Virus record (IMG/VR): IMGVR_UViG_3300010998_000001
Coordinates: 91,477-155,476 of that record
Strand: one strand, 5' to 3'
From: a virus
Taxonomy: Duplodnaviria > Heunggongvirae > Uroviricota > Caudoviricetes
Length of the DNA: 64,000 bases
Shown here: piece after piece, positions 7,351-50,428 of the stretch
How the letters are laid out: each line of letters opens with the position of its first letter
Numbering within the stretch: the stretch's first letter is position 1
Notes under the pieces: model-generated
What the model saw: only the letters and a program-made list of their open reading frames with translations
Told to the model about the DNA's origin: nothing
The model's database searches: none
Made by a program: the position numbers and the translations under genes

Positions 7351-8793
7351 CTATAGATGAACAACCATCCCGCGAAATGCCATAACTACACGATAAGTCT
7401 TGTTATTATTAGATATGGCTTCTTTCAATCTCTTAGCAAGGGCAGACTTACTCTCGGCTGTTCCGTGAACAAGAACAAGTTTATTAGTATTCAACGAGCT
7501 TCCGAACTTAATCAAATCTGTGCTATTTGCATGACTACTAAATGTAGTCAAAGAAATACAGTCTGCTTTGTTGGGGATTTTCAGTTTGTTAATACTAATA
7601 AATTTGTGATCTCGATAATTCTTTACTCGATATGACAAATATGATGGGTTATCCCCCGTATAACCAGAAAAGACAATAATGCTATTCGGATCGGCAATAT
7701 ACTTCTTGAGATACTTTACAATCCTGCCGTTAGTGCAAAAACCAGATGAGGATATAATAATCTTTGGTGAATTATCCGCCAGCCACAAATCAGATTCATC
7801 TTTTTCTGAAACAAACTTCACATTCTTCCAGTTATATACCTTTTGCCAATCGTCTAAATCGGCATCATCAAGCAATGAATTATATGCCTTACTTACATCA
7901 CAACTTAGTTTTGAATCCACTAATACAGTCTTATTAAAAAATGAATCTGTTCCAAACAAATCATATAATGATGTAAGAACTTCTTGTGTGCGGCTAAAAC
8001 TGAAACATGGAAACACTACCGATCCACCACGATCTATTGCTGTTTCCACCGTTGACTTTAAATGATCTAAGTCAGCTTTCCGCGTTTTGCGAGAATCGCG
8101 TTTTTCATCTCCGTATGTTGACTCCATTAATACACAATCAACAAACTGAGTCGGTATCTGTGTATCAGGTAAAAAGTGATTATCAGTGTGCAATGCACCT
8201 AAATCTGACGTGTAAAGAATTTTTTTAGTTTTCTCTTTTGTGGATAGGATTAGGTAAAGTTGCGCAGCTCCAAGACAATGAGAGTTTGACAACCATTGAA
8301 AACTAACCGTATCGTTCAATTTAATAGTTTGGTTATAATCATCATATTCATATATTAAATCAAATGTATTATATACATCTGTGATTTCATATATTGGTTT
8401 ATAATTCCTGCCAAACTGCTTTGAGAGAATCTTGCTTTCATCATTTAGTATATGACAAGAATTGATTAAAAGTAATTTCATAATCTCTGCGGTCTTATGA
8501 GTTGCAATAATCCGTCCATGGAATCCCTCATGAACCAATCTTGGAAGAAGGCCGCAATGATCTATGTGTGGGTGTGCCACAAATACAAAATCAATTTCCG
8601 ATGGCTTGAACTTGAATTTTTCAGAATTAATCTTATAAGAATCTAAATAACTATTGCTGGAAGATTGATGCAATCCACATTCTAATAAACACTGGCATGG
8701 GCCAAATCGAATGTAATACTGTGAACCAGTGACATCATCAGATGCTTTTCCAGTAAAGAAAATGCCATCCGTTTTTAGTTTCTTTTTACTCAT
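7351..8793 (-). CDS. Metallo-beta-lactamase-fold / beta-CASP-type nuclease (RNase J / CPSF-like)
   Basis: HxHxDH motif FVAHPHIDHCG near the N-terminus; 480 aa. Confidence 0.6.
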   Translation of the reverse strand: MSKKKLKTDGIFFTGKASDDVTGSQYYIRFGPCQCLLECGLHQSSSNSYLDSYKINSEKFKFKPSEIDFVFVAHPHIDHCGLLPRLVHEGFHGRIIATHKTAEIMKLLLINSCHILNDESKILSKQFGRNYKPIYEITDVYNTFDLIYEYDDYNQTIKLNDTVSFQWLSNSHCLGAAQLYLILSTKEKTKKILYTSDLGALHTDNHFLPDTQIPTQFVDCVLMESTYGDEKRDSRKTRKADLDHLKSTVETAIDRGGSVVFPCFSFSRTQEVLTSLYDLFGTDSFFNKTVLVDSKLSCDVSKAYNSLLDDADLDDWQKVYNWKNVKFVSEKDESDLWLADNSPKIIISSSGFCTNGRIVKYLKKYIADPNSIIVFSGYTGDNPSYLSYRVKNYRDHKFISINKLKIPNKADCISLTTFSSHANSTDLIKFGSSLNTNKLVLVHGTAESKSALAKRLKEAISNNNKTYRVVMAFRGMVVHL

Positions 8794-9564: not shown

Positions 9565-10449
9565 TTACATACTTATACTTTTTGATCTATAGTTTTGAAC
9601 GTTTTCTCTTATTTTATTTCTTCTATATTTATCATAACAATTATTGCATCTATTCGTTTGATTGTTTTTTGCGTCTACATCAAACGTCTTTCCGCAATCC
9701 ACACAAATAATGGTTTTCGTATCCCATGTTTGATACCCGGCACATTCAGAACAATACTTCTTTGTTTTAGCTTTATTGTTCTTTATCAATCTGCCGCAAC
9801 TTGCGCAACGAACATAACCGCCATGAGCATAATTCAAATACTCATAGCCAAGCTCTCTGAAATCACTGATTGAAATTACATATGGGCTATCGTCATTAAC
9901 AAACGTTACTCTATTACTTAGATTGTCATTCTTCTTAGGGAACTCTAACAAACCAAGTAGACCAAGATCGCCAAGCATTTGATACTGCTTTAGCTTGCTT
10001 GCGGAGATATGGGCCATTTTGAAAATGTCCTTTGCATCCTCATTGACCCATCCATTATTCTTTACATTCCTTTTATTGGCTAGCTTTGCAAGACATAGTA
10101 TTGTAAATGCTAATCTTTTTAATTCTGTTCTCCCATTTGACTCTTCTATACTATTGATCGTATCAATCTCTGCCTGAGTGATTAGAATTTCACTAATATC
10201 ATATAATGGGTATTTCCCGGCGCGGCGGGAGATACGTTCAACAGTTTCTTGCCATTTAAGGATATTAGCATGATAACGCTTATAGTTTTCTTTCAAAAAC
10301 TCTAACAAGGCTTTTTCAATTCTTTTAGTACGCATTCCTTGTTCATAATAGTATTTTGCAAGTATCTGTAAAGTGATATATACGTTCTCACCCACATCAC
10401 CCGTGTTTATACAAGTCTCGGCGTATTCTCGTTCATTAAGTATAATCAT
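9565..10449 (-). CDS. Hypothetical protein with a C-terminal multi-Cys zinc ribbon
   Basis: CASCG...CSECAG...CVDCG...CNNC cluster in the C-terminus. Confidence 0.45.
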   Translation of the reverse strand: MIILNEREYAETCINTGDVGENVYITLQILAKYYYEQGMRTKRIEKALLEFLKENYKRYHANILKWQETVERISRRAGKYPLYDISEILITQAEIDTINSIEESNGRTELKRLAFTILCLAKLANKRNVKNNGWVNEDAKDIFKMAHISASKLKQYQMLGDLGLLGLLEFPKKNDNLSNRVTFVNDDSPYVISISDFRELGYEYLNYAHGGYVRCASCGRLIKNNKAKTKKYCSECAGYQTWDTKTIICVDCGKTFDVDAKNNQTNRCNNCYDKYRRNKIRENVQNYRSKSISM

Positions 10450-13180
10450 CTATCTTATCACCAACATACATTGTCCGCATATCAAAGACATGTCCACAAT
10501 ATTCAAATTCATCTCCACCATTGACAGGGAAGGAAATTGAATAGTCATTTCTCTTTAATAGATTATGTATAATAGTTTCACCAGCAACTTTCCAGGCAAA
10601 TTGTTTTGATTTTTCTGTCTGATAACAAATATCTAAAACAATATCGCAAAGCTCTAATTCGTTGCTACAAATCTTTTCTGCGGCGGACTTAAAACGATTA
10701 ATAAACTCTTCTTCTGAATTCTCATCTTCATCTGAAACGCCAGAATGAGCCACACGCTGAAAATATGCTTCTCTCTCGTGTGTATAATTTATATATAACT
10801 CTTTGATTGCGTTAAAATCTTTTTTACTGTATTCTGTTCCACTTTTTAAAATAGTATAATCAAATTCTTGATCTATGCGCGATCTAATTGCAGAAGAATC
10901 AAATTCATTTTCTATGATATGGCACAAACGGTTGATAACACAATCATTAAAACCTACGCTCATTCCATATTCATAGTGTTGTATGAAATCAACCATCTCT
11001 TTTGTTTTAGGCGTATATTCTAGTAGTTCTTTGAAACTCTGAATATTGTACTTACGAAATTTGCAAATAACTTTATAATCCGTGTTTTGCAAATACTTTC
11101 TCAGTTTTGTTTTTAGTGCCGGATATACATATATCATAAAGTATGGCTTGTGTGCTGCAACGATCTTCTTGTGAAATGCTTCCGCATCATCTCGCGGAAT
11201 GTCGCGCATTGAATACCAGTATGGAGGCATAGGTTTTGCAATAATGCCTTTAGCTCGATCTATTGTGTTCTGCTGAAAATTCTGTCCGCACATGATACGG
11301 TAATTAAGAATTTTGTATTCTTCACTATCAGGTTGAAAACCAGCTCTCCGCTCGATCATTGAAGTAACATGGTTAGTAACAACACCAATATCATCATTGA
11401 ACGCCAGTTTATTAGCTGCGATAATCTCATCCTCAGTAACTATCTTTTTCTCTGCTTTTCGCTGCACACATACAATTGTAGGCTTTTGTTGTAGGCTCTG
11501 AAGGATAATTGGATTATCCGTACACATATTGGTATCGCCATCAAAATCCGATCCATTCATTGCCTCACAGGTGCTATCAAAGGCATTGTGTATAAGCGCC
11601 GTATCTATATATTGAAACCAATGTAACGCCTCTGCCGAACGATTCAGACGAACCTTTCGGATGTTATTGCTGACTGTCATAGGGGCACGAAAACAAGCAA
11701 TCTCATCTGATCCTCTGTCAATCCAATACTTGTGATAACACTCACCAGCTCGCAATAGACCAGTTACAGGCAACCCAAACATACTTTGACACAGCGCATA
11801 CAAATCGCCGCTTATCATGGCATAATTGCCATTAACACGGATAGAACCCTTCTTAGCACAATCAATGCGTTTTTTTATCATAGTCTGAATGTTGCGCCGT
11901 ACATATGGGTCATTGATTGCCGCTGGCTCGATCATCAGCGCCTTTATATAATCGTCCTCGATCTTTAAAACATTCGACTCATTGAGGCTAAAACCAGCCA
12001 GGAACACTATAGCCTTGCGATAATCCATTCCGAGAACACCATTGATCTCATCAATCGTAGGTTGGCACAGCTCACGCAGCGCATCATCGTCCATATCAAT
12101 GTCCTGAAGGAACTGATAGTTAGTATCTCTTACATTCTCTAATTCATCAGGAGTCAGTTTTGCGGCAGAGAACTCATACCCGTTTTTAATACAGTTGCCA
12201 TAGTAATCTTCCCAACTATCGTAGCAATTCCACAACTTCAACATAGATTCTGTTAAGATGACTTCTGCATCTCTAACATCTCTATCGTCGCCCCATACAT
12301 CCTTTATCACATAAGACCCAGCGACTTTCTCTGCAAACTCCACAAAATCAAATGTATATACCATACCCTTAGTCCAGGCCCATCGTGAATTAAAACCAGA
12401 TACGGTTTTCTCTGGATCGCCGCCGAAGCTTGCATTGACTCTCTTAGAATACGACGGAAGCATCAAACCGTAGCCATCAGAATTGTTATGCTCGATCTCG
12501 TAATCCTTGACATATGACAAATCTGGTTCATCACCCTCTGAGTCCTGGATCAAAATGACATCTTCTTTAAAATGAGTAATACAGTCATTCACAACAATGA
12601 TTCCATGTGGCTGTGGTAGGGGAGTGGAGCCAGAACAAATGAGGGCTTGATATGCCTCAAGCTTGGCAGGAACCAGAGGGACATCATGATTGCGCCCGTT
12701 ATCTAACTTGGCTTTTAATGCCGGGTACAGCTTATCATTCACATAAACAATCGTGCTGTTCTTAATACCACCATTTGTCCCAAGAAATCTTCTGTACTTG
12801 ATGCCATTAACATAGAAACCTTTATTAGCGCGGTCATAATCAGAATTGCTCGCCATAACTACACAAATGTAATCTTGTTGAAACTGCAACTCATAAAGAA
12901 CACGATAGTATTCATTAATCATCTTCTTAGTTTCAACTGTCCTTGGCTTTTTCTTTTCTATCTTAATCTTTTTCTGTACTGCGCGGATTTCGTTATCAAT
13001 GTTTCGCACATTATTCAGTTTATCAATAAACCTTAGAACTTGACTCGTACCGATAGAAACCACTATCTCAGGGTAATCACGCAAGGCCTCGTCTAAAGGC
13101 AATTTTAAATTCCAATTAGCTTTCTTTAATTGTTTGCTGCTGATCTTGTATATCAAACGTAAGCAGCTCTGTTGTTTCAT
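10436..13180 (-). CDS. Large protein (914 aa) with a DFDGD metal-binding motif; candidate single-subunit two-barrel RNA polymerase (YonO/QDE-1-like). Function unproven.
   Basis: NGSDFDGDTNMCTDNP resembles the NADFDGD catalytic loop of multisubunit-type RNAPs and the DxDGD loop of cellular RdRPs. No Walker motifs and no PolA/PolB motifs are present. Confidence 0.35.
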   Translation of the reverse strand: MKQQSCLRLIYKISSKQLKKANWNLKLPLDEALRDYPEIVVSIGTSQVLRFIDKLNNVRNIDNEIRAVQKKIKIEKKKPRTVETKKMINEYYRVLYELQFQQDYICVVMASNSDYDRANKGFYVNGIKYRRFLGTNGGIKNSTIVYVNDKLYPALKAKLDNGRNHDVPLVPAKLEAYQALICSGSTPLPQPHGIIVVNDCITHFKEDVILIQDSEGDEPDLSYVKDYEIEHNNSDGYGLMLPSYSKRVNASFGGDPEKTVSGFNSRWAWTKGMVYTFDFVEFAEKVAGSYVIKDVWGDDRDVRDAEVILTESMLKLWNCYDSWEDYYGNCIKNGYEFSAAKLTPDELENVRDTNYQFLQDIDMDDDALRELCQPTIDEINGVLGMDYRKAIVFLAGFSLNESNVLKIEDDYIKALMIEPAAINDPYVRRNIQTMIKKRIDCAKKGSIRVNGNYAMISGDLYALCQSMFGLPVTGLLRAGECYHKYWIDRGSDEIACFRAPMTVSNNIRKVRLNRSAEALHWFQYIDTALIHNAFDSTCEAMNGSDFDGDTNMCTDNPIILQSLQQKPTIVCVQRKAEKKIVTEDEIIAANKLAFNDDIGVVTNHVTSMIERRAGFQPDSEEYKILNYRIMCGQNFQQNTIDRAKGIIAKPMPPYWYSMRDIPRDDAEAFHKKIVAAHKPYFMIYVYPALKTKLRKYLQNTDYKVICKFRKYNIQSFKELLEYTPKTKEMVDFIQHYEYGMSVGFNDCVINRLCHIIENEFDSSAIRSRIDQEFDYTILKSGTEYSKKDFNAIKELYINYTHEREAYFQRVAHSGVSDEDENSEEEFINRFKSAAEKICSNELELCDIVLDICYQTEKSKQFAWKVAGETIIHNLLKRNDYSISFPVNGGDEFEYCGHVFDMRTMYVGDKIDDYT

Positions 13181-27563: not shown

Positions 27564-27616
27564 CTTGACAAATGCAGTGTAGTATGATATAATACAGTTA
27601 CAGTAAATGAGTTACT
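27564..27616 (+). promoter_or_regulatory. Sigma70 promoter with the downstream operator-like palindrome AGTAAATGAGTTACT
   Basis: ttgaca-N17-tataat at 27564-27592; the palindrome is at 27602-27616. Confidence 0.55.
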
Positions 27617-36993: not shown

Positions 36994-38214
36994 ATGAAAT
37001 TTATCGCGGATGGTTATGATATTCAGGATGCTATCAACAAGGCGCTTGTTGTTTGTCCGAAGAAATCTACATTCGATAATATGACTACGCTGTATATCAA
37101 GGCCGTAGAGGGCCAGGACGTGGCTGTGTGCGCCGTTAGTATGACAGACTATATCCGAGCATACATAAGGGCTGACGTGCTGGAAGAGGGCGCTGTAATG
37201 ATCTCTCGCGGCGAGATCGAAAAGGTATATAAGATTGATAATCTTGTTACGGTAGAAGCTCATAATGATATGTTTACTATGAGCAATGGCAAGAAGCGCC
37301 GCACGGTACACACATATGAGATGAGCAGCGGCACAAATGAAACGGAGTCGAATTTCCTTCATTGGAGCATCGGCAAGAATGATTTTTCGGAGATTTTTCT
37401 TTCCTGTAATTGCGGCGATTTTTTGGCCGCGCTTGAAAAGCTGAAGGATTTTACAGGAAATGATGCAAAGAAGCTTATCTATACTGGCTTTCATCTGAAT
37501 AGCGCGCGGCACATGATTGAAGCTTGCAATGGCTATGCCGCAGCTTGGAAACGCCTGGATGCCGGATGGTATAGCAATCAGGATTTGATTCTGACACATA
37601 CGATTCTGCCTATGATGAAGAAGATTGCCAGCACAAAGCGAGACAAGCGAGAGGATATTTCTTTCTATATTGGCGAGTATGGAAACATGAAGCTCGTTAA
37701 GATAACGGGTGAGAATTATGAGTATTATACCAGCCGATATGAGGGAGAATATATCAACCTTGAAAAATCCATTGGAGGTCTGGAAACGAATTATCTTGTG
37801 ACGGTCGATGCGGATGATGTATCTGATGTGGCGCAGGATTTCATTAACAGCTCGCAGGAGGCGCTTACGAAAGGCGTATTTGTCGCGGCAGATAAACAGT
37901 ATGGATTTGCTGTGGCGATCAATGCAAGCGATTTTAGAGGCATTGAGATAGTCGATGGAAGTAATACGTCTCGCGCAATAGATGATCGTGTTATTGTGAG
38001 GATCAATCCTATCTATCTCAAGACCGCCATGGATTTCTTTAAGAAGGAACGAGTTTATATTTCTATCAAGAGCAATACAGCGCCCATCATCATCACAAAT
38101 GAGGAAGATATTTATGATGTTGATGATCTGGCATTTATTCTTCCGGCGCGTTATCACGCGGTAGAGATTGACACAATTAGCGGTATGTTTGACGATCTGA
38201 TTTCTGGACGCTAA
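36994..38214 (+). CDS. DnaN-like DNA polymerase sliding clamp (beta-clamp family)
   Basis: The ~400-aa size, the MKF...KAL N-terminus and the C-terminal ...INPIYLKTAMDFF...APIIIT...LAFILPAR pattern are typical of DnaN. Confidence 0.5.
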   Translation: MKFIADGYDIQDAINKALVVCPKKSTFDNMTTLYIKAVEGQDVAVCAVSMTDYIRAYIRADVLEEGAVMISRGEIEKVYKIDNLVTVEAHNDMFTMSNGKKRRTVHTYEMSSGTNETESNFLHWSIGKNDFSEIFLSCNCGDFLAALEKLKDFTGNDAKKLIYTGFHLNSARHMIEACNGYAAAWKRLDAGWYSNQDLILTHTILPMMKKIASTKRDKREDISFYIGEYGNMKLVKITGENYEYYTSRYEGEYINLEKSIGGLETNYLVTVDADDVSDVAQDFINSSQEALTKGVFVAADKQYGFAVAINASDFRGIEIVDGSNTSRAIDDRVIVRINPIYLKTAMDFFKKERVYISIKSNTAPIIITNEEDIYDVDDLAFILPARYHAVEIDTISGMFDDLISGR

Positions 38215-38220
38215 AAGACA

Positions 38221-38264
38221 TTGACGATATGCGGAGGGAGTGTTATTATAGTAAATGAATTACT
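38221..38264 (+). promoter_or_regulatory. Sigma70 promoter (TTGACG-N17-TATTAT) whose operator AGTAAATGAATTACT contains the start codon of the HTH gene (near-leaderless)
   Basis: The ATG at 38255 lies inside the palindrome at 38250-64, only ~6 nt after the -10. Confidence 0.5.
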
Positions 38265-39716: not shown

Positions 39717-39740
39717 AATATGTAAAGGAGATACATAACG

Positions 39741-41654
39741 ATGATGAACGTAACGATCAATGAGAAGATGAACGGGATCGAGCTTCGCTTTGATGGCAAG
39801 CCGGAGCGGGATGTTCTTACCGCGCTGAAGGCTAATGGTTTCTGTTGGAGCAATCGCCAGAAGATGTGGTACGCGAAGAATACCGACGAGCGCATGGAGT
39901 TTGTGACCGCGCTTGGCGAGGGTGATATTTCTTATGAGAAAAACGAGAAAACAAACTCAAGCTTGACTTATGACCTTTGGGCAATGACCCGCGTTGATGA
40001 TCTGATTCCCGGTAAGTCTTATACGGATCGTCTTGGAAGCGGTATGAGTTGCAAGGAAATCGCCGCGATTATTCGCAAGCATATCCGCGCCCGTTTCCCG
40101 ATGTGTAAGTTCTCCGTTACCAGCGATTACAATAGCATCAACATTGATCTCCTGGCTGGCCCTTGGGCGAAGGATAGTGGCGAGATCGCCGCGATTGCAG
40201 AGTATGTCTATCGCTTCACCCGGCAGTATAACTATGACAATAGCGACAGCATGAGTGATTATTTCGATGTCGGCTTTTATGGTGTGTATGGCGCTTCCAG
40301 CATCCTCTCTTACCATTACGAGCAGCGGGAGCAGACTGTGGCCGAGATGAACATTGCCGCCGAGTTCCAGCAGCAGCGCGAGGCGTATGAGGTTCGGAAA
40401 GCCAAAGAGGAAAGGGAAAAGCTTGAGCGCCGCATGAAGGAGCTTGAGATTGAGCGAGAGAAGGCCGCGATCCGTGCCGAAGAAGAGAAACGCGAGATTG
40501 CCGCCATTGAGAACGGCTCTCAGGTTTCCGATTGCGATTTCTGGTGCGACAACCTTTGGACTACCAATATCAACAAGCTTGATTCTGCGGCGGCTTATGA
40601 GCGTTACCGTGATAGCGAAGAGGAATGCATTGAGATTAACCGCGAGACTTGCCATGTTGTGCGTGGTGTGAATATGAGTGCCGAGATTTATGCTATGTTC
40701 TCCCGCCATCTTCTTTCTGATTTCTCCTTCCTTGAGCATATGGGCGGGACTAGCACGGATGATCTTCGCATCACTTCCGACCTGGATTATGTGCGCATGA
40801 GCAAGGAAGAGCGCGAGAGTGTCAAGTTTTATTGCGATAAGTGCGTGGCTATTTATTGCGCCAAAGAAAATTCGTCGGATTGTGAACTGAAAATGGTGGT
40901 TGATCCCCAGGGCTTTAGCTATGCGCGTTATGTGTATTTCGTGGATGAGGAATCCGACGTGGATTGTAGCCACGATGCCGAGGCCAATCGCGGCATTACC
41001 TATGAAGAGCTTGAGGATAACAAAGTTGCCGCCGATGGTCTTGAGGATGCCAGCACGGAAGTTATCATGGACAATGATATGGTTGGCACTTGGAACAAGG
41101 AACGGCGCGAGGAATACAAAATCAAGTTTGTGGAGTATCTGAAAGATCATCCTATGCGTTTTGATGCTGCCGCGATCCGCGCCATGGAGAATAGGGAGCT
41201 GAAGGAAATGCTCTATGATATTCTCAATAGTCCGCTGAATGCCGTGTATCAGTTTTCGGTTTCTGGCCTGAATCCTGGTGATAAGTTCTCTCTGTTCCGC
41301 ATTGGCGATTTCGGAATGTTTGAGAAAATCTATGGCGTATTTGTCGGATACGAGGTTAAGAAGTATGCGCAGTATGATAACGCTGTTTGCCTGATGTTCA
41401 AGCGCGAGCATGGCCGCACGGTGTATCAGATGTATATTTACCGTGACTGTCTGATTTATAAGGACTGGCTTGAGCTGCCGGAGGGGCTGTTTTGGGAAGA
41501 GCTTGAAAGCTCTTCGGGGCTTTGCACGATCAAGCATGGTAAGTTTATGTCATGCGACAATCAGCAGTATGATGTGACTATGGATTATCTCGCGGAGCAT
41601 GAGCATTATCCTGTTGTGAACACCTATAAGCCGATCTTTAAGCGCTGCGTATGA
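39741..41654 (+). CDS. Large hypothetical protein (637 aa) with a central charged coiled-coil; visibly more GC-rich than its neighbours
   Basis: RBS aaaggag. The N-terminus reads NGIELRFDGKPERDVLTALKANGFCWSNRQKMWYA. A long shadow ORF on the opposite strand is consistent with the higher G+C. Confidence 0.5.
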   Translation: MMNVTINEKMNGIELRFDGKPERDVLTALKANGFCWSNRQKMWYAKNTDERMEFVTALGEGDISYEKNEKTNSSLTYDLWAMTRVDDLIPGKSYTDRLGSGMSCKEIAAIIRKHIRARFPMCKFSVTSDYNSINIDLLAGPWAKDSGEIAAIAEYVYRFTRQYNYDNSDSMSDYFDVGFYGVYGASSILSYHYEQREQTVAEMNIAAEFQQQREAYEVRKAKEEREKLERRMKELEIEREKAAIRAEEEKREIAAIENGSQVSDCDFWCDNLWTTNINKLDSAAAYERYRDSEEECIEINRETCHVVRGVNMSAEIYAMFSRHLLSDFSFLEHMGGTSTDDLRITSDLDYVRMSKEERESVKFYCDKCVAIYCAKENSSDCELKMVVDPQGFSYARYVYFVDEESDVDCSHDAEANRGITYEELEDNKVAADGLEDASTEVIMDNDMVGTWNKERREEYKIKFVEYLKDHPMRFDAAAIRAMENRELKEMLYDILNSPLNAVYQFSVSGLNPGDKFSLFRIGDFGMFEKIYGVFVGYEVKKYAQYDNAVCLMFKREHGRTVYQMYIYRDCLIYKDWLELPEGLFWEELESSSGLCTIKHGKFMSCDNQQYDVTMDYLAEHEHYPVVNTYKPIFKRCV

Positions 41655-42169: not shown

Positions 42170-42513
42170 TGGAAGATAGAACAATCAAGTTTATACGCGC
42201 CATTAAAGGTGGAATAGAATTTCGCCCGACGATTGAAGAGACGGCAGTAGCGTTTATGTCTGATTATTCTGGCGTTCCTGAAAGCCGTTATACCAATGAT
42301 TTGCTTTTCAAAATTGTCAAAGATTTCTTTCTTGACTTTCTGAAAACTGCGGATAACCCGTCTTTTGAAATGTGGCGTTTCTTTGATGTGAAGTATAAGG
42401 CATTTGAAACAAGAGATGATACTTATGCTATGCTGGTGACTATGCAGCTCGCGCAAGTGCGTAATGACGATGGATATGTCAATGGTTTTCGTGATTTGGA
42501 AACCGTCAAATGA
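42169..42513 (+). CDS. Hypothetical protein (114 aa)
   Basis: RBS gaggaagga. Confidence 0.4.
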   Translation: MEDRTIKFIRAIKGGIEFRPTIEETAVAFMSDYSGVPESRYTNDLLFKIVKDFFLDFLKTADNPSFEMWRFFDVKYKAFETRDDTYAMLVTMQLAQVRNDDGYVNGFRDLETVK

Positions 42514-42596
42514 AATGTGAGTTTTATCGGCAAAAAATATCAATATATAGTGGAGTGGTAATGTTATAACCACAATATATAGTGGAGGCGAAGAAG

Positions 42597-42782
42597 ATGC
42601 GAGTACGAAGGATGACAATGGCCGAGGGAATGCGGTGGAATCTGTCTCAATACCCGAATTTTTCAGCTACGGGAAGCATTCGCGGCATGAAAGAGAAGTA
42701 TTACGGCAAAGATGCTTTGCTTGTTCGCTGCGGTGGTTTCATCTATAAGGTTCCGGCGAATGTTTATTATGCTGCCTCTTAA
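42597..42782 (+). CDS. Small basic protein
   Basis: RBS ggaggcg. Confidence 0.35.
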   Translation: MRVRRMTMAEGMRWNLSQYPNFSATGSIRGMKEKYYGKDALLVRCGGFIYKVPANVYYAAS

Positions 42783-42800
42783 AGAAAAACAAAATAATGC

Positions 42801-42852
42801 TTGACAACTGCTAATTAGTATGCTATAATACAACCATAGTAAATGAGTTACT
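42801..42852 (+). promoter_or_regulatory. Sigma70 promoter with the AGTAAATGAGTTACT operator, driving the integrase
   Basis: ttgaca 42801-06, tataat 42824-29, palindrome 42838-52. Confidence 0.55.
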
Positions 42853-42870
42853 AATTAGGAGGTAACGATC

Positions 42871-43830
42871 ATGGCACAGACGGCAAGAAAGATGGACGAG
42901 AGCGGAATCATTAACTTCTTTGATTTCTGTGAGCCGCGCCAGGAAGCAGAACAGGACAAAGCTCCGAAACTCAAGAAGGATGGCACTCCTAAAACCATCG
43001 TTTGCAACAAGAAGAGGGGCCGTAAGTCTGAGGTTTACACTCTTGAAATTGCGGACATGAAGAAAATCATTCGTTATTTTGAGGACACCGGGCGCTGGAT
43101 TCATTACCTTCTTTTCGTGATGAGCTGCAACATGGCTCGCCGCGTTGGTGATACTCTCAATCTCCGCTGGTGCAACTTCTATAATGAAGATGGTTCTTTC
43201 CGCAGAGATATTTTTGAGATCGTCGAGGATAAGACCGATAAGCTGGCGAATCCTCATATCAATTCCGCAGTAAGAGCCGCTATTCAGAAGTACATTGAAA
43301 TGACTGGCTGCGATCCTGCCGCGAATGAGTATCAAAACTATGTGTTCCTTCAGTTATCCGGCACACACAAGGGGGCGGTTCTTAGCTACAGCGCGTATAT
43401 GAAGGCTCTGAAAAAGGCGGGAGAGGAAGTCGGTATTGAGTACAATATCGGTACGCACAGCCCTCGCAAAACCTTTGGTATGATGTCCCGTATGCTTCAT
43501 CCCAATGACTATGACAGCATGGAGCTGTTGCAGACTGTTTTCAATCACTCCGATACCAAGACCACGAAACATTACATTGGCTTGACGAAGAAGAAGATTG
43601 ACCAGTATTATGATGATATGGGCGCGTTCTTTGATGCATATGTTACTGGCGACCAGGAATATATCGCGGTCAGCGATAAGCCGATTATCAGCATTGACAT
43701 AAATGATATGCGTGATCTTCTGATGGCTGCTATCAAGGCTGGCTTTGAATCCGGCAAAAACGGCGATCCAGCTTCCATGATGGACAAGTTTAATGAAATG
43801 ATGGAAATGCTGGATACCATGAGAAAGTGA
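42871..43830 (+). CDS. int: Tyrosine recombinase / phage integrase
   Basis: ARRVGDTLNLRW (Arg I), GTHSPRKTFG (His-x-x-Arg) and HSDTKTTKHYIGL (catalytic Tyr). Confidence 0.75.
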   Translation: MAQTARKMDESGIINFFDFCEPRQEAEQDKAPKLKKDGTPKTIVCNKKRGRKSEVYTLEIADMKKIIRYFEDTGRWIHYLLFVMSCNMARRVGDTLNLRWCNFYNEDGSFRRDIFEIVEDKTDKLANPHINSAVRAAIQKYIEMTGCDPAANEYQNYVFLQLSGTHKGAVLSYSAYMKALKKAGEEVGIEYNIGTHSPRKTFGMMSRMLHPNDYDSMELLQTVFNHSDTKTTKHYIGLTKKKIDQYYDDMGAFFDAYVTGDQEYIAVSDKPIISIDINDMRDLLMAAIKAGFESGKNGDPASMMDKFNEMMEMLDTMRK

Positions 43831-43839
43831 GGAAACACA

Positions 43840-44115
43840 ATGAATCCGAAGCGTTACGCGGAGCTGCTTGAGTTCATCCAAAAGAATAATGGATGGGGGC
43901 CGAGCATGGCAAAGAGTCTTTACCAGAAAAAGCGACGGTGTTTCAAATATGTAACCGCTGATTTTGATACAAGAACTGGCCGAGTATGGAGGATTGTCCT
44001 CAGAAGTGGATTGCCGGAGCGTGAAAAAGAATTTCTTGTTAATACGCAGGATGATGTGTATGCTCTATATGAGTATCTGAATACGCCCTATGAGGCTTCT
44101 GACGAGGCGACATGA
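43840..44115 (+). CDS. Hypothetical protein (91 aa)
   Basis: RBS gaggaaac. Confidence 0.4.
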   Translation: MNPKRYAELLEFIQKNNGWGPSMAKSLYQKKRRCFKYVTADFDTRTGRVWRIVLRSGLPEREKEFLVNTQDDVYALYEYLNTPYEASDEAT

Positions 44116-44309
44116 AAGAATATAAGGGAATACCAAAGAACGATATAGGCTGGGTGGAAATCCGCACAGACAGTGGCGATCTGTATTACATCACATCTAA
44201 GAAAGATCGGGAGGTATATTATCTTTATAAGATCGAAGATGATACGGCAAAGCTCATGGGTCAGTCTCAAAATCCATTGAAGCTAGAGGAAAAGTTTATA
44301 AGAAGATAA
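44112..44309 (+). CDS. Hypothetical protein (65 aa)
   Basis: ORF track. Confidence 0.35.
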   Translation: MKEYKGIPKNDIGWVEIRTDSGDLYYITSKKDREVYYLYKIEDDTAKLMGQSQNPLKLEEKFIRR

Positions 44310-44320
44310 CAAACTAAAAC

Positions 44321-44370
44321 TTGACAAAAACATAACTTTGTGATATTCTACATATAGTAACTGAGTTACT
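44321..44370 (+). promoter_or_regulatory. Sigma70-like promoter with the near-perfect palindrome AGTAACTGAGTTACT, driving the MazF-like gene
   Basis: ttgaca 44321-26; palindrome 44356-70. Confidence 0.5.
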
Positions 44371-44470
44371 AAATATAACTGAAAGGAAGGCGATGTGTAG
44401 GCGTAATGCTGGCATATCCTCCACAGAGGCGTAGGCTTTGCCTACATAGCGCCGATGTGGGTATTCCAGA

Positions 44471-44854
44471 ATGTACGAACAGAGTTATGTTAAGCGTCCC
44501 AAGTGCGGCGAGATTTGGATGTGTAACCTTACATCCAAAGAGGGAAGTATTCAGAGCGGGTATCGCCCAGTTTTCATTCTCTCCAACAATAAGAATAACA
44601 CATATAGTCCTACGCTGAATGTGATTCCTCTGACTACGAAGATGAACAAGAGAAGTCTGCCTGTTCATGTGGAGCTTTGGGAATACCGGGCGTATGGATT
44701 GAAAGCACCTAGCACTATGCTTATCGAGCAGATTACGACGGTTCCCGCAGAGAACATGCAGCACTATGTCGGCAAGATTGCGGATCAGAATACACTTGCC
44801 AACATTCGCACGGCCATGAGTGTACAGTTCCCTATCATTTCTCTTGCGGTATAG
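44471..44854 (+). CDS. MazF/PemK-family endoribonuclease toxin homolog with no adjacent antitoxin ORF
   Basis: KRPKCGEIWMCNLTSKEGSIQSGYRPVFILS...VIPLTTK... matches the MazF/Kid N-terminal pattern. The start-codon context is weak. Confidence 0.6.
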   Translation: MYEQSYVKRPKCGEIWMCNLTSKEGSIQSGYRPVFILSNNKNNTYSPTLNVIPLTTKMNKRSLPVHVELWEYRAYGLKAPSTMLIEQITTVPAENMQHYVGKIADQNTLANIRTAMSVQFPIISLAV

Positions 44855-44924
44855 AAAATAACATAATAATGCTTGACATTATCCTTTAGGTGTGATACAT
44901 TTACTTTAAATGGAGGATGATGTT

Positions 44925-45947
44925 ATGCAGACAATTCCTACAAAACAGTTGATCGACGAATACATTGATTCGGAGTTCGGCCAGGATGAAATAACTTTGT
45001 ATAAGGTTCGCGGAGGCATAGATCGAAAAGAGATATATGAGTATGAAGCCAAGATTGGGAAACAGCTCATGGATTTCACCGAAGATGAGATCATCGATAT
45101 GGTATGCACTTTGCAAAATGGCAGAGTTACCAGTCGCGGTGAAGGTGTGTCTTTACTGACGTACAAGAACTTTTTGTCTCGGCTGAGAGGAATTTTTAAT
45201 TACTACATCGAGCATTATGAAGTAATCCGAAATCCGATGAATAGTAAATCCATGCGCGGCGCGGCTGCGCTGGACAAGATTTCAGAGCGAGTTATTAAAC
45301 CATATTCATATGAGGATGTTGAACAACTGATCGCTTATGCACACATGGATGATACGCCAGAGATGGGCGATTGGTTGGAATGTGTGATACTTCTCTTTTA
45401 TAGTGGCTGTCCTTCTCCGCAAGAGCTTACGCGCATTAAAGAGGACATGATCGATTTCAATGCTAATGAAATCCATATGGCGAATGGAGTGACTATCCAT
45501 CCCTCTGCAAGATGCTTGTATCTCTTCAAAAAAGTTCATGAGATGGAAATTGTCATGGGCGGCAAGGGGCGCGGAGTAGGTCAATACCTTATGTATCAGT
45601 ATAAGGATTACTATATGCGCTATCTGATAGTTCCAGGAATGGAATATGAATATAACCAAAGGGAAGAGGAAGTTCTATCAGAGCTAGCAAACAAGATCAA
45701 TCAACAGTTCGCAAAAAGACTTTCCTCGAAGTACAATGTCAAAGCAAGCCCGCGCCAGATATACTTGTTAGGTTTTTATGATTATATGGTAAATAATCTT
45801 GGGCTTGATGAAACGAACGACATTATTTTATCTCAAAGAGATAAGTCAAAGTCTGATATTTTTGTTAGTATGGCGGATCAGTATGGAGTGAACCGCTGCA
45901 ACATTACAGAAATGCGGAATAAGATGCGGCCATTTGTAAGACATTAA
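44925..45947 (+). CDS. Hypothetical protein with distant, probably inactive integrase-like features
   Basis: Own sigma70 promoter at 44867-44895. LLFYSGCPSPQELTRIK sits where a recombinase Arg box would be. No clear catalytic Tyr. Confidence 0.3.
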   Translation: MQTIPTKQLIDEYIDSEFGQDEITLYKVRGGIDRKEIYEYEAKIGKQLMDFTEDEIIDMVCTLQNGRVTSRGEGVSLLTYKNFLSRLRGIFNYYIEHYEVIRNPMNSKSMRGAAALDKISERVIKPYSYEDVEQLIAYAHMDDTPEMGDWLECVILLFYSGCPSPQELTRIKEDMIDFNANEIHMANGVTIHPSARCLYLFKKVHEMEIVMGGKGRGVGQYLMYQYKDYYMRYLIVPGMEYEYNQREEEVLSELANKINQQFAKRLSSKYNVKASPRQIYLLGFYDYMVNNLGLDETNDIILSQRDKSKSDIFVSMADQYGVNRCNITEMRNKMRPFVRH

Positions 45948-46100
45948 AGGCATTGCCGCCAATAGGCGGCTTTGCTAAAACTTAAAAGAGAAAAACAAAC
46001 TAAGTATTGACAAACGATGTGCGATATGGTATAATACTTGACAGATGGAGATTGACTTTCTCCAATATGAAAAAACAAACTAAAGGAAGAAGGGGAACAA

Positions 46101-46715
46101 ATGTCTGAGTTTGTAATTGTTGGCAACGATGGCAGCTATATGAAACAGGAGGGACAGGCATATCGTCCCGTTGGCTTGCTGTCACAGGCTACGCGCTGGC
46201 AGAACAAACAGAAAGCCGAAAATGTCCTGCGAAGCTGTATCAACAAGAATCTTAGGCCACGTTATCACGTTGATCTCGTTCCTGGTACTGCCAACAATTT
46301 TGCTATGAGCGCGGCCAAAGAGCAAGAGATGATTAATATTGGTGCGACGGTGATCGAGGATGGACAGATTGATAAGTGGGCGGCAGATATTGATTCCTTT
46401 GCCACGTTCATCGATGAAACGGAGACACGTCGGGGGCAACTTGATGAGAAGCTGTCCAGCATAGATAAACAGATTACAGACATCTGTCATTACATAGAGT
46501 TCGGTAAATACAATGCGTATCAAGGCTGGCTCATCACCAATATGCTGAGAAACAGATTGCAGCAGCGGCGCAAGGTCAAGAATGAGTTACTTTTTCTTCA
46601 CGATCTTATGCGGTGCAATGTCGATGGCTCTATGATTGACACAATGAAGAATACAATGCGAAAGATTAAGGAACTTGAATATAAGCCAAGGGTGCTTTCT
46701 CAGCTATTCAAGTGA
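46101..46715 (+). CDS. Hypothetical protein (204 aa)
   Basis: RBS ggaagaagggg. A sigma70 promoter lies at 46006-46036. Confidence 0.45.
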   Translation: MSEFVIVGNDGSYMKQEGQAYRPVGLLSQATRWQNKQKAENVLRSCINKNLRPRYHVDLVPGTANNFAMSAAKEQEMINIGATVIEDGQIDKWAADIDSFATFIDETETRRGQLDEKLSSIDKQITDICHYIEFGKYNAYQGWLITNMLRNRLQQRRKVKNELLFLHDLMRCNVDGSMIDTMKNTMRKIKELEYKPRVLSQLFK

Positions 46716-46725
46716 GGGAGAAAAA

Positions 46726-47214
46726 ATGAAACTATCGAATATCAGAATTTTGCCGTACTTTCAGCGAACACCGCCTTCTGAAATAAAGATGGATATGTGC
46801 CGTACTTATTTCAAAAACCACGGAGTTCTTGACAGAGAGATCATCCTGGATCATCGTTTGACTCTCACAGATGGTTATGTCGGCTATCTCGTTTTGAAGG
46901 AGAATGGGATCGAAGATGTAGATTCCTATGTAAGAGTAGAGGCAAGAGCGGCAGATTCGCGTCCGGTGAATCCACCGTATTGGACACAGGAAACGACTTA
47001 TGTATTCGGTAAACATCCGAATTGCGACAAAGAATATGTTTGGCGTATCAAAAAGTCAAATAAATCTGTCGATGAGTTTATGCGCGTCGGGGGCAAGGCC
47101 ATTGTAAGTACCCGTAATGGCAACAAGGTAATTACGATCACGCGAATTGAAACGATGAATCATTCTCCGACAAATAGAATTGTAAAGAAGGTGATCCGAT
47201 GCTTGCCAGAGTGA
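46726..47214 (+). CDS. ParB/Srx-like N-terminal domain protein
   Basis: NIRILPYFQRTPPSEIK...LTDGYVGYLVL resembles the ParB nuclease/NTPase fold. Confidence 0.4.
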   Translation: MKLSNIRILPYFQRTPPSEIKMDMCRTYFKNHGVLDREIILDHRLTLTDGYVGYLVLKENGIEDVDSYVRVEARAADSRPVNPPYWTQETTYVFGKHPNCDKEYVWRIKKSNKSVDEFMRVGGKAIVSTRNGNKVITITRIETMNHSPTNRIVKKVIRCLPE

Positions 47215-47226
47215 AGAAATTTTTGT

Positions 47227-47445
47227 TTGACATCACGCCACGGATTTATCGCTTGCCGACTGTTACATATATACGCTGGATGGATAAAGAGTTCATCATT
47301 AATCGGAGCTTTTGATATGGGCGACGAAATGCGAAAAGATGATTGGCAAGAGCCAATTTATAATGACAGATATATAGTGCATCACGAGGACGGCACAAGC
47401 GAAGTATATGATATGAGTGGCAACCAAATTATTTATCATACATAA
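47227..47445 (+). CDS. Small hypothetical protein (the real start may be at 47317)
   Basis: ORF track. Confidence 0.3.
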   Translation: MTSRHGFIACRLLHIYAGWIKSSSLIGAFDMGDEMRKDDWQEPIYNDRYIVHHEDGTSEVYDMSGNQIIYHT

Positions 47446-47453
47446 TAGGTAGG

Positions 47454-47750
47454 TTGGAAAAAATGAAACATAGAGAAAAGAAGTATAAGAAACTGCGGCG
47501 GTTTATGAAGAAGCAGGGAACCAATTTTGGAGAGAACTATGTTGTTTATAACCAGGTGACACGCATGAACAACATTATGATGCCAGCCGTCGTTGGTGGT
47601 CAGAAGATTGTCACGAACGGATATGACGAGCTGGATGCCGTGAGGAAATATTACAAGCTGTGGCGCGATAGTATTCGGATGCAAAAGAAGATGGCAGAGA
47701 TAGTAAAGAGAGAAGATCGCCATATGCGATACTTAGAGAAGAACAAGTAA
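47454..47750 (+). CDS. Hypothetical basic protein (98 aa)
   Basis: RBS taggtagg. Confidence 0.4.
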   Translation: MEKMKHREKKYKKLRRFMKKQGTNFGENYVVYNQVTRMNNIMMPAVVGGQKIVTNGYDELDAVRKYYKLWRDSIRMQKKMAEIVKREDRHMRYLEKNK

Positions 47751-48130: not shown

Positions 48131-49156
48131 ATGAAGATCGAAGAAATAAAAGAAGCAATCCAGACAGAAAGCTATAATTTTCTTCGTACCCATCCGGCGC
48201 TAGGGAACAACATTATTCTTCTTGGCCTTGGCGGGAGCCATGCTTATGGTACAGAAAATGCGAATAGTGATTTGGATGTTCGGGGGATCGCCACAAATAC
48301 AAAGAGATTTCTTCTGACTGGCCGCGATTTCGAGCAGTATGTGGAGCGTGAAACAGACACAACGGTTTATTCCTTCGACAAAATGATTAAGTTGCTTTGC
48401 AACTGCAATCCTAATACGATTGAAATTCTTGGTCTAAAGCCGGAGCATTATCTGAGGATGACAAGAGCTGGAAAGATGCTGCTTGATAACAAAGAGATTT
48501 TTCTTTCCAAGATTGCAGTTCATTCCTTTGGCGGTTATGCAAATTCTCAACTTCGCAGACTGGAAAACAAATCGGCGCGGCTCGCAAGCCAGGAACAGCA
48601 GGAAAAGAATATTCTGAAAAGCATTGAGAATGCCAGCGTAGATTATAAGCAGCACTATTTCCATTTCCCTGATGATGCTATCCGTCTTTTCATTGATGAG
48701 ACTGACCGCGAGGGATATAACACAGAGATTTTCATGGATGTGAATTTGTCTCATTATCCTCTGCGTGATTATACTGGCCTGTGGAGCGAGATGCAGAACG
48801 TGGCGAAAGCGTATGCAAGCATTGGAAAGAGAAATGAGAAGGCAATCGCGCACGACAAGCTGGGGAAGCATATGTGCCATTTGGTAAGGCTCTACCTCAT
48901 GTGTTTCGATATTCTTGAAAAGGGAGAGATCAACACCTTCCGCGACAAAGACCACGATCTTCTTATGTCCATCCGTAATGGACGGTATCTTGACGAAAAC
49001 CGTCAGCCTATTCCAGAGTTCTATGAAATGGTCGATGGATTAGAAAAGCGCCTCGATTATGACAAGACGCATACTGAGCTGCCGGACAGACCAGACATGG
49101 AAGCTGTATATGATCTGGCAATGACAATTAATGAAGAAGTGTGTAGGAGCGTGTAA
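48131..49156 (+). CDS. Pol-beta-superfamily nucleotidyltransferase (RlaP-like GS-x-AYG...SD-x-D class)
   Basis: GLGGSHAYGTENANSDLDVRG; 341 aa. Confidence 0.6.
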   Translation: MKIEEIKEAIQTESYNFLRTHPALGNNIILLGLGGSHAYGTENANSDLDVRGIATNTKRFLLTGRDFEQYVERETDTTVYSFDKMIKLLCNCNPNTIEILGLKPEHYLRMTRAGKMLLDNKEIFLSKIAVHSFGGYANSQLRRLENKSARLASQEQQEKNILKSIENASVDYKQHYFHFPDDAIRLFIDETDREGYNTEIFMDVNLSHYPLRDYTGLWSEMQNVAKAYASIGKRNEKAIAHDKLGKHMCHLVRLYLMCFDILEKGEINTFRDKDHDLLMSIRNGRYLDENRQPIPEFYEMVDGLEKRLDYDKTHTELPDRPDMEAVYDLAMTINEEVCRSV

Positions 49157-50428
49157 ATGTACCTTCCATCTGATGTAGAGTATATTCTTGAAGTCTTATA
49201 TCTCAATGGGTATCAAGCGTATTGCGTTGGTGGATGTGTTCGTGACAGTTTGATGGGTATTAAGCCGCACGACTATGACATTTGCACGTCGGCAACACCA
49301 GATCAAATCTTGGGCATATTCAACGAATGTGGCTTGCGCTGTCTTACCGTGGGCCTGAAACATGGCACGGTCACGGTCATTCTTGGCAGCGAGCAATATG
49401 AGATCACGACATTTCGTATTGATGGTGATTATTCAGATGGTAGACACCCGGACGAGGTAATATTTACAGACAAGCTTTATGAGGATTTGGCGCGACGGGA
49501 TTTCACTATGAACGCCATTGCCTATAATTTCAGAGATGGGATCGTAGACCCATTCCACGGTCAGGATGATATTAAGCGGCGCATTATCCGCTGTGTTGGT
49601 GATGCCAATGAACGATTCCAGGAGGACGCTCTGCGTATGCTGCGCTGTCTGCGCTTTGCCTCGCGGTTCAATGATCTATATATAGACGGCGATACCAGAC
49701 AAGCGCTTATAACTAATGCGCATCTTCTCAAGAATGCGTCTGTCGAGCGCATTCAGTCTGAGCTTGTGCAGATTTTGGAGTGCGACAATCATTCTAACCA
49801 AATCCTGTATGAGAATTTGATCTATCTTCTTTCCGTCGTTGTGCCGGAGCTTGAGATGGATGATAAATATGATATAGCTCGCCACCTGATCGGACAACAT
49901 TCAACTGGCCGCAATGTCTATACAATGGCGGCTCTTCTTTTCGATTTCTGTGAAGAGACGCTAGATGATGTTTTGCGCCGCTTGAGATTCCCGAATGATG
50001 ATATTTACCACATCAAGCATATCAGCGCCAATGGCTATGATATTGTTGAAAATCTTGACATTCTTATGTCTGGTAATGTCGATCTCGATATTTTTGCGCG
50101 AGATATTATCAGCCGCATAGGATATGGGGACGCTTTTGAATCTGTGAATTATGCGATCTCCTATCAGAGCGTTGATATGGACAAGGTGAGTTTTCTTTTT
50201 GGTCTGAAGGAGATCGTCGGCGCACACTATGTAGACGAGGGCCGCATTACTATTTCGTCTCTTGAGATTAACGGAAATGATTTGCTGGCTCTTGGGTATC
50301 AGGATCGCAAGATTGGAGAGATGCTAAACATCCTTCTTGATAAAGTCATTCATTATGAGCTTGGGAATAAGCGCGATCAACTCATGTGGTTTGTGAAAAA
50401 TTATAAAGCAAAACAAACTAAGTCTTGA
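49157..50428 (+). CDS. cca: tRNA nucleotidyltransferase (CCA-adding enzyme)
   Basis: GYQAYCVGGCVRDSLMGIKPHDYDICTSATPDQI matches the class-II CCA-enzyme head motif. Confidence 0.8.
   Translation: MYLPSDVEYILEVLYLNGYQAYCVGGCVRDSLMGIKPHDYDICTSATPDQILGIFNECGLRCLTVGLKHGTVTVILGSEQYEITTFRIDGDYSDGRHPDEVIFTDKLYEDLARRDFTMNAIAYNFRDGIVDPFHGQDDIKRRIIRCVGDANERFQEDALRMLRCLRFASRFNDLYIDGDTRQALITNAHLLKNASVERIQSELVQILECDNHSNQILYENLIYLLSVVVPELEMDDKYDIARHLIGQHSTGRNVYTMAALLFDFCEETLDDVLRRLRFPNDDIYHIKHISANGYDIVENLDILMSGNVDLDIFARDIISRIGYGDAFESVNYAISYQSVDMDKVSFLFGLKEIVGAHYVDEGRITISSLEINGNDLLALGYQDRKIGEMLNILLDKVIHYELGNKRDQLMWFVKNYKAKQTKS

Follow-up and report, generated by a model that had tools for sequence, protein, structure and literature searches.

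A mazF-like gene without an adjacent antitoxin gene, behind a predicted structured leader and beside a putative MrpR/SroF-like repressor gene in large Clostridia phages

In mazEF and parD (kis-kid), the toxin cuts the transcript of its own operon and thereby tunes its own level; the antitoxin is co-encoded in these systems, and the cut adjusts the ratio of antitoxin to toxin. Type III systems (ToxIN and AbiEi-like RNA antitoxins) carry a structured RNA with a recognition site directly upstream of the gene for an endoribonuclease of related fold. The MazF proteins of Bacillus subtilis, Listeria monocytogenes and Staphylococcus aureus cut at a strict six-nucleotide site, U^ACAUA, which has been proposed to be conserved in Bacillota (bioRxiv 10.64898/2026.08.06.743204). 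In the phages SPbeta and phi3T, whose hosts are Bacillus, the MazF concerned is that of the host: it favours phi3T lysogeny, and phage proteins release or block it (PMC10769878). The MazE binder phi3T_93 (SroA) frees MazF from MazE, and the inhibitors AimX and YosL block MazF (PMC10769878; bioRxiv 10.64898/2026.08.06.743204); SroB is also named beside SroA as a MazE binder (bioRxiv 10.64898/2026.08.06.743204). Transcripts of SPbeta and phi3T show an enrichment of MazF sites (bioRxiv 10.1101/2023.04.27.537455), and the master repressor of SPbeta-like phages, MrpR/SroF, has an integrase fold and recognises a box that recurs in about ten promoter regions (PMC10516654; bioRxiv 10.1101/2025.11.27.690993). 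Here we describe a mazF-like gene (44471-44854, + strand) carried by a tailed phage itself, together with its promoter, its leader and its neighbours. It lies in a 64,000-nucleotide stretch of viral DNA (positions 91,477 to 155,476 of IMG/VR record IMGVR_UViG_3300010998_000001), hereafter the window, in which all coordinates are given unless a locus is named.

The reading that we favour, tentatively and at somewhat less than an even chance, is that this is a phage-borne, antitoxin-less MazF that is limited by an operator, by occlusion of its ribosome site and by cutting of its own message, within an SPbeta-type lysis-lysogeny module. MazF toxins and SPbeta-type switches are both known kinds, and the locus does not constitute a new category. 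What appears to be new is a conserved bistable leader that displays the reported cut site of the family, a pattern of UACAUA retention and avoidance across the genes of the switch region, and the constant pairing of mazF with a MrpR/SroF-like repressor gene in large Clostridia phages. If the reading is correct, a MazF toxin runs without an antitoxin, and transcriptional, translational and self-cleavage controls in its own mRNA substitute for one; the abundant 150-170 kb phages that infect Clostridia of the human gut and rumen would then possess a phage-encoded version of the MazF-dependent logic of lysis and lysogeny, independent of that in the Bacillus phages.

The 127-aa product is a member of the PemK/MazF family, in agreement with a preliminary description that had been made from the sequence alone. 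It matches PF02452 (74.6 bits against a cut-off of 23.1, E 9e-21, residues 11-116) and PHROG 1936, 'MazF-like growth inhibitor' (E 4.6e-25), and a search of the PDB with a profile of 39 family members returned S. aureus MazF (4mzm) and B. subtilis EndoA/MazF (4mdx, 4me7 and 1ne8) as the closest solved proteins (E ~1e-21). Homologues number 472 at E ≤1e-5, with 64-76% identity among the matches listed, many of which are on 140-170 kb contigs, and a lookup of the exact 127-aa sequence gave no record. A shorter, 111-aa gene call was rejected as a start-codon artefact because relatives keep the N-terminus of the 127-aa protein. A check for missing catalytic residues found both the Arg and the Thr intact: R32, P33 and T55 are invariant across the 39 family sequences, as are about 50 further positions, and Arg32-Pro33 and Thr55 align with Arg25-Pro26 and Thr48 of B. 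subtilis MazF (MazF-Bs), which are RNA-binding and toxicity residues (PMC8634880). The protein is accordingly annotated as a putative PemK/MazF-fold endoribonuclease with Arg32 and Thr55 as catalytic residues. It shares with the B. subtilis and S. aureus enzymes the fold family and the Arg-Pro, Thr, HVE and EQ motifs, and the motif conserved around the phage gene is their cut site, U^ACAUA. Unlike them, it is phage-borne, has no MazE gene, carries Ile or Val in place of a loop Glu, and is associated with a structured leader and a repressor neighbour.

Phage annotations often include a lone MazF-like gene (97 records). Those assigned to PHROG 1936, such as gp50 of Faecalibacterium phage Lagaffe, encode proteins 32-41% identical to the present one, likewise lack an annotated antitoxin and likewise come from gut Firmicutes phages; they differ in lying in tightly packed replication operons, with neither the leader nor the repressor neighbour. 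Full-text literature searches found no reported function for lone phage MazF-like genes and no paper on a phage-encoded, antitoxin-less MazF.

The absence of an antitoxin open reading frame (ORF) from the transcription unit, as the preliminary description had it, holds across the phage clade. Among about 70 related loci, collected from IMG/VR, metagenome and genome scans, no conserved small ORF adjoins mazF; upstream ORFs vary from locus to locus, and matches to antitoxin families are absent from the neighbouring proteins in Pfam, PHROG, NCBIfam and PADLOC. The adjacent, co-transcribed protein antitoxin gene that marks type II (MazEF-type) systems is missing, and there is no adjacent protein antitoxin in this clade. 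The constant neighbours of mazF are instead a promoter with a 100-180 nt leader upstream and a gene for a protein of 330-345 aa downstream, with an integrase-like gene further upstream. In the search for a partner across related phages, the 330-345 aa repressor-like gene proved to be the constant one, lying directly downstream of mazF in 55/56 loci with enough sequence, after a gap of 55-120 nt.

Small reading frames near the gene were considered and set aside. orf65 (44112-44309) has no family match, and its homologues, which some half of the loci lack, track the integrase-like gene and not mazF, at variable distance; orf91 has no match in Pfam, PHROGs, NCBIfam or PADLOC. As a leader peptide, a 13-codon upstream ORF (44393-44434) was rejected, being too close to the Shine-Dalgarno (SD)-like box and not conserved, and a 70-aa overlapping ORF is not conserved in relatives either. 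A different arrangement occurs in a distant sister clade of ~150-kb phages with MazF proteins 28-43% identical. There, mazF is followed in 25/29 cases by a translationally coupled ORF of 83-108 aa (loci L118-L163; for example L118:3577-4211, L127:3830-4473 and L150:3950-4626). These ORFs fall into at least three unrelated sequence types of no known family and are candidates for a new antitoxin or inhibitor; no homologue of them was found in the window or its clade.

The leader appears to be a conserved structured RNA with covarying alternative helices, one of which would mask the ribosome-binding site. In the window it folds at -39.6 kcal/mol (z = -2.6 against shuffles). Its 5′ box (44381-44402, + strand) consists of the SD-like GAAAGGAAGG followed by GGCGAUGUGUAGGC and provides the 5′ arm of a predicted long-range helix. 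The 7-bp inverted repeat TGTAGGC/GCCTACA of the preliminary description is real and is the core of longer, 14-nt arms (44389-44402 and 44440-44453, repeat I2; 86% complementary), whose duplex is calculated at -23.5 kcal/mol; the 7-bp repeat by itself is not beyond chance, and its significance comes from the comparative data below. Two direct repeats reported earlier, AGGCGTA x2 and CGATGTG x2, are also present, and AGGCGTA and GTAGGC may be read as alternative pairing partners. A predicted hairpin encloses UACAUA (44443-44448, + strand, 28 nt upstream of the AUG), which occupies its apical part. The anti-SD strand of this hairpin (44409-44432, + strand), which includes CCUCCACA (44418-44425), would pair with the ribosome-binding region, and its 3′ strand (44449-44470, + strand) covers a weak ribosome-binding site, GAUGUGGGU (44454-44462), and reaches 2 nt before the AUG. 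The duplex of 44409-44432 with 44449-44469 is calculated at -25.1 kcal/mol, and the hairpin is also part of the minimum-free-energy (MFE) fold.

Two leader types occur among the relatives, that of the window being type 2. Both begin with an SD-like box (GAAAGGAAGG or GGCUGGAGGAGG) and both have alternative pairings, with helices similar in stability. In type 1, box A (GGGCUGGA) has two possible partners, a proximal one (AGCCC) and a distal one (AAUCCAGCC); the distal box can alternatively pair with the ribosome-binding region (AAGGUGG..UGGAUU-AUG), and the MFE folds of single relatives show one state or the other. In type 2, the competition is between the 5′ arm and a local hairpin. RNAalifold yielded no consensus structure from MAFFT-aligned leaders, as indels break the register, and covariation was therefore assessed by an alignment-free test in which the duplex energy of the two strands of each leader is compared with that of strands mixed between leaders (20000 permutations). 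The pairing is significant because cognate strands outperform non-cognate ones: -16.5 versus -13.3 kcal/mol for the type-1 helix P1 (0/20000 permutations as good), -14.1 versus -12.0 kcal/mol for type-1 P2 (9/20000), -15.5 versus -11.9 kcal/mol for the type-2 long-range helix (3/20000) and -14.0 versus -10.4 kcal/mol for the hairpin enclosing UACAUA, across 35 unique leaders of all types (0/20000). The structured leader of the preliminary description is thereby upheld. A scan of 43500-45500 against Rfam 15 gave only chance-level matches (E >0.6), and 44200-44950 contains no tandem repeats.

UACAUA is a recurrent element of these leaders. With or without a preceding U, it lies at -25 to -36 in 40/51 unique leaders and in every leader type, and the distant clade has it in 25/29 leaders, mostly together with a second copy that overlaps the AUG. 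The motif is predicted to be more accessible than the SD region, with unpaired probabilities of 0.60 versus 0.37 in the family and 0.68 versus 0.25 in the window. Within mazF, an Asn-Thr-Tyr stretch is written as AAT ACA TAY in 37/47 unique genes, with ~0.25 expected from codon use (binomial 1.7e-14), and the coding sequences as a whole hold 40 UACAUA sites where 5.0 are expected. A second gene of the module, orf204 (46101-46715, + strand), writes the Tyr-Ile of its HYIEF motif as TAC ATA in 18/20 genes (0.045 expected per gene; binomial 9e-23; 46491-46496 in the window), and 22 orf204 coding sequences contain 23 sites against 3.4 expected. The motif sequences are related, so that these binomial values overstate independence; orf204-like genes have one to three sites even in clades at 25-30% protein identity.

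The opposite is seen in the two putative lysogeny genes that flank mazF. Repressor-like genes (37 genes, 36.9 kb) contain one UACAUA versus 12 expected, and their antisense strand contains 17; TACAT is followed by A in 1/38 cases in repressor-like genes versus 51/146 in other genes (Fisher 1.4e-5). Integrase-like genes (38 genes, 35.4 kb) likewise contain one site versus 6.6 expected, and both genes of the window contain none. Over the window, TACATA on sense strands is more frequent than in dinucleotide shuffles (27 versus 10.4 and 15 versus 6.8 expected). An excess is likewise seen on one antisense strand (22 versus 12.7), which makes this window-wide enrichment weak evidence. Of the 27 plus-strand sites in the region of plus-strand genes, beyond 20.5 kb, 12 are intergenic.

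The module is ordered integrase-like gene, mazF, MrpR/SroF-like repressor gene, orf204. mazF is preceded by a sigma-70-type promoter (44321-44349, + strand; TTGACA, a 17-nt spacer with TG, and TATTCT) that scores 10/12 matches plus the TG extension in a consensus scan, and TTGACA..TGnTATAAT is found at the equivalent place in relatives. At or near the transcription start lies the palindrome TAGTAACTGAGTTACTA (44355-44371; extended arms 44349-44377), which substantiates the earlier claim that the gene sits behind a palindromic operator, the operator function being putative. Seven copies of this 17-bp palindrome, (T/C)AGTAAATGAGTTAC(T/C)N, occur in the window (at 27601, 32266, 35334, 38249, 39701, 42837 and 44355) versus 0.21 expected by chance. 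Six of the seven lie a few bases 3′ of a -10 element, including those of the mazF and integrase-like promoters; the copy at 38249 has no recognisable promoter upstream. The palindrome, which is also present upstream of mazF in many relatives, may be a repressor operator or a 5′-terminal RNA hairpin common to these transcripts. No terminator-like site was detected on the + strand in 42500-47500, including the intervals between leader and mazF and between mazF and the repressor-like gene.

The upstream boundary of the module is a tyrosine-recombinase gene of the SroD/YopP-like, integrase-like kind (42871-43830, + strand; PF00589 E 9.5e-13; PHROG 216, integrase) with its own palindrome-bearing promoter; it lies upstream of mazF in most loci, at 40-65% identity. 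Downstream of mazF, a promoter-like site without the palindrome (44873-44901, + strand; TTGACA-17-TACATT with TG) precedes the repressor-like gene (44925-45947, + strand, start possibly 44910). Sequence-level support for the identity of its product is weak (MrpR_N_CB, PF22822, E 6.6e-4, in 7/34 members), and sequence-only searches of the PDB with this protein gave no match. An AlphaFold model built on ten homologues (predicted local distance difference test score, pLDDT, 85) has a tyrosine-recombinase fold, and its top folds in the PDB are YopR/MrpR of SPbeta (8bj6, 8a0a and 8bpz) and phi3T SroF (9rd5 and 9rgl), with E values of 4.5e-9 to 8e-8, ahead of active tyrosine recombinases. By eye, the usual position of recombinase box I lacks the Arg (LFYSGCPSPQEL). 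The model thus points to a putative MrpR/SroF-like master repressor as the downstream partner of mazF. orf204 follows behind its own promoter (46007-46035, + strand) and has no family or structure match by sequence in Pfam or the PDB.

The module resembles the sro (yopM-R) region of SPbeta and phi3T in its integrase-fold master repressor, as modelled here, in its upstream integrase-like gene and in the presence of a YonO-type RNA polymerase (in the window a YonO-like polymerase of the RNA-dependent RNA polymerase fold, PF05183, at 10436-13180, minus strand); the several operator-like copies spread over the genome may be a further parallel. It differs from that region in having a phage mazF, placed between the integrase-like gene and the repressor gene, and in its hosts, which are Ruminococcus-type Clostridia. 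Whereas the phi3T box is 26 bp long and asymmetric, the putative operator here is a 17-bp palindrome.

The related loci come from 150-170 kb gut phages, for which the records name as hosts Ruminococcus sp. YE282, a Hominimerdicola metagenome-assembled genome (MAG) and MAGs labelled Clostridia bacterium and Candidatus Gastranaerophilales. Members of the clade are found inside bacterial contigs, one relative copy lying within a contig of 517 kb, so that the clade is probably temperate. None of 50,697 phage records matched the region at the nucleotide level. In one member of the window's clade, a 350-aa ORF takes the place of mazF between the integrase-like and repressor-like genes (L100:1267-3480); this member still keeps TAC ATA in orf204.

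On the reading favoured here, three layers would take the place of an antitoxin. The first would be the promoter with the repeated palindromic operator of the phage; the second, the leader hairpin, which would hide the ribosome-binding site and keep the dose low; the third, the presumed target UACAUA in the leader and, in most relatives, also at codons 43-45, through which MazF would destroy its own mRNA. Such self-cleavage would amount to negative feedback and would differ from that of mazEF and parD in acting on a toxin-only message with a dedicated site that is proposed to be displayed by a hairpin. The SD-like box at the 5′ end of the leader resembles the mRNA-stabilising 'STAB-SD' elements of Bacillus, and if it stabilises the message, a cut at UACAUA would detach the stabiliser. 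Infection or induction would produce a pulse of UACAUA-specific RNase that cuts orf204 and other phage messages and spares those of the integrase-like and repressor genes; the sparing of lysogeny genes would shift infection towards lysogeny, and the pulse would end as the repressor shuts the promoter and MazF cuts its own message. A more specific and somewhat more doubtful proposal is that the protein is a toxin-type RNase domesticated by a family of large temperate gut phages as an antitoxin-free, self-limiting regulator, with its own site in a bistable leader and in the coding sequence, and that UACAUA marks out a small post-transcriptional regulon of the switch region in which the mRNAs of orf204 and mazF are sensitive and those of the integrase-like and repressor genes immune. 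If so, it would be a phage-encoded counterpart of the dependence of arbitrium phages on host MazF. Gene-specific retention and avoidance of UACAUA could serve as a signature for predicting MazF targets in uncultured phages.

Several observations weigh against these proposals. All members of the family carry Ile or Val at the position of the beta1-beta2 loop Glu (G25-S26-[IV]27-Q28, within GS[IV]Q.GYRP). This Glu, E20 in MazF-Bs and MazF-Da and E24 in MazF-Ec, is reported to be required for activity or recognition, and its loss abolishes activity in MazF-Da and MazF-Ec (PMC8634880). Because it is absent from the whole family, the activity or specificity of the phage protein may differ from that of the characterised enzymes. 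The mazF of the window itself reads AAC ACA TAT and is without the internal site, and, when 2171 hexamers are ordered by their depletion in repressor genes against a codon-shuffle null, UACAUA comes only 28th. The position of UACAUA in the loop of the SD-masking hairpin means that cutting could free the ribosome site and raise translation. The palindromes are kept among phages whose repressor-like proteins are only ~30% identical, which sits uneasily with a protein-specific operator. The coupled ORF of the sister clade suggests that toxin and antitoxin may ancestrally have formed a two-gene pair, and this phage may encode an unrecognised inhibitor elsewhere. Finally, the motif pattern may reflect host MazF instead of phage MazF.

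This last point leads to an alternative that we consider unlikely: the chromosomal MazF of the host shapes the UACAUA pattern, and the phage homologue is neutralised by, or titrates, host MazE. On this account the missing antitoxin would come from the host, whose MazF would be set free when the phage protein is expressed, much as SroA/phi3T_93 of phi3T frees it by binding MazE. Such a route is consistent with the action of phi3T proteins on host MazE and MazF (PMC10769878) and with the reported cross-neutralisation between non-cognate MazEF pairs (PMC10893535). The absence of the loop Glu would fit a catalytically weakened enzyme, and orf204-like genes keep UACAUA sites in some loci that have no mazF within 5 kb, although mazF may lie elsewhere in those genomes. 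Conversely, the invariance of the catalytic Arg and Thr and of the other conserved positions suggests an active enzyme, and the leader motif travels with the phage mazF across clades of 28-100% identity.

Self-limitation by cleavage would also be reversed in sign if the leader silenced mazF until its loop was cut. By this account, which we regard as improbable, host or phage MazF cuts the UACAUA of the loop, frees the ribosome site from the anti-SD strand and allows translation to start, which implies positive feedback or a sensing of MazF activity. The geometry is suggestive, as the covarying hairpin with UACAUA in its apical part extends with its 3′ strand over the SD and the AUG, the alternative helices are of similar stability, and the leaders of the distant clade have their second UACAUA over the AUG. 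However, cutting at the conserved site in the coding sequence could do nothing but inactivate the mRNA, a cut 5 nt upstream of the AUG takes away the SD, and positive feedback on a toxin without an antitoxin would be lethal for a nascent lysogen.

A role in host shut-off or anti-defence, as entertained in the preliminary description, would make the protein an RNase of the lytic programme that the repressor silences in lysogens. The repeated palindrome at the mazF promoter fits such control, and many other gut phages carry lone MazF-like genes in replication operons. The position of the gene argues otherwise, as mazF lies between lysogeny-type genes in 55/56 loci, and so does the presumed cut site, which is not depleted in phage transcripts: the sense strands do not avoid UACAUA, as the shuffle comparison above shows, and the mazF mRNA itself carries it. 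PADLOC gave no matches and no anti-defence signature was found, which leaves the suggestion of a defence decoy unsupported as well, and a shut-off or anti-defence function is disfavoured as a poor prospect.

Still less probable is that the MrpR/SroF-like protein is itself the antitoxin of a toxin-first pair, whether by transcriptional repression only or by direct binding. Its invariance as the downstream partner, the absence of a terminator between the two genes and the fact that the same position in the sister clade is held by the translationally coupled small ORF (25/29) speak for such a pair. Against it, the repressor-like gene has its own promoter, is separated from mazF by the 55-120-nt gap and is not translationally coupled to it, and its product has no similarity to the small ORFs of the sister clade. 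The protein also evolves faster than MazF (25-36% versus 55-76% identity across loci), whereas direct binding partners would be expected to co-vary.

Least of all do we expect the leader to be an RNA antitoxin of the type III kind that stays bound to MazF after processing at UACAUA and inhibits it: a conserved structured RNA with the presumed recognition site directly 5′ of the toxin gene, matching no Rfam family, would suit such a role, but the tandem RNA repeats and the terminator before the toxin gene that mark ToxIN-type systems are absent, so that the RNA-neutralised toxin of the preliminary description fares badly; one RNA copy per mRNA gives an unfavourable stoichiometry, the toxin is a true PemK/MazF protein and not ToxN/AbiQ, and the helices pair with the ribosome-binding site, pointing to a cis-regulatory role.

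Several further features of the window and its relatives touch on the module. The mazF promoter belongs to a regular family of 15 sites on the + strand (23564-59056) with TTGACA, a 17-nt spacer ending in TG, and TATAAT, of which the palindrome-carrying members are also preceded by AACAAA(C/A)TAA. One of the palindrome-carrying promoters serves a gene for a 637-aa LPD29-domain protein (39741-41654), in which a UACAUA (39732-39737) lies between the Shine-Dalgarno sequence and the AUG. A 406-aa ORF at 36994-38214 has no Pfam match, and no arbitrium genes (aimR-aimP-aimX) turned up in the window, where no systematic search for them was made. The minus strand encodes a beta-CASP/RMMBL metallo-beta-lactamase nuclease of the RNase J/CPSF type (7351-8793), and a phage RNase of this type could clear the products of MazF cleavage. 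Downstream of the module, the window carries RlaP-like and CCA-adding/poly(A) polymerase-family genes (48131-50428). In relatives, genes for a nicotinamidase, a phosphoribosyl pyrophosphate (PRPP) synthetase-like protein and a nicotinate phosphoribosyltransferase (NAPRTase), which belong to nicotinamide adenine dinucleotide (NAD) salvage, adjoin the module (L002:6787-8390).

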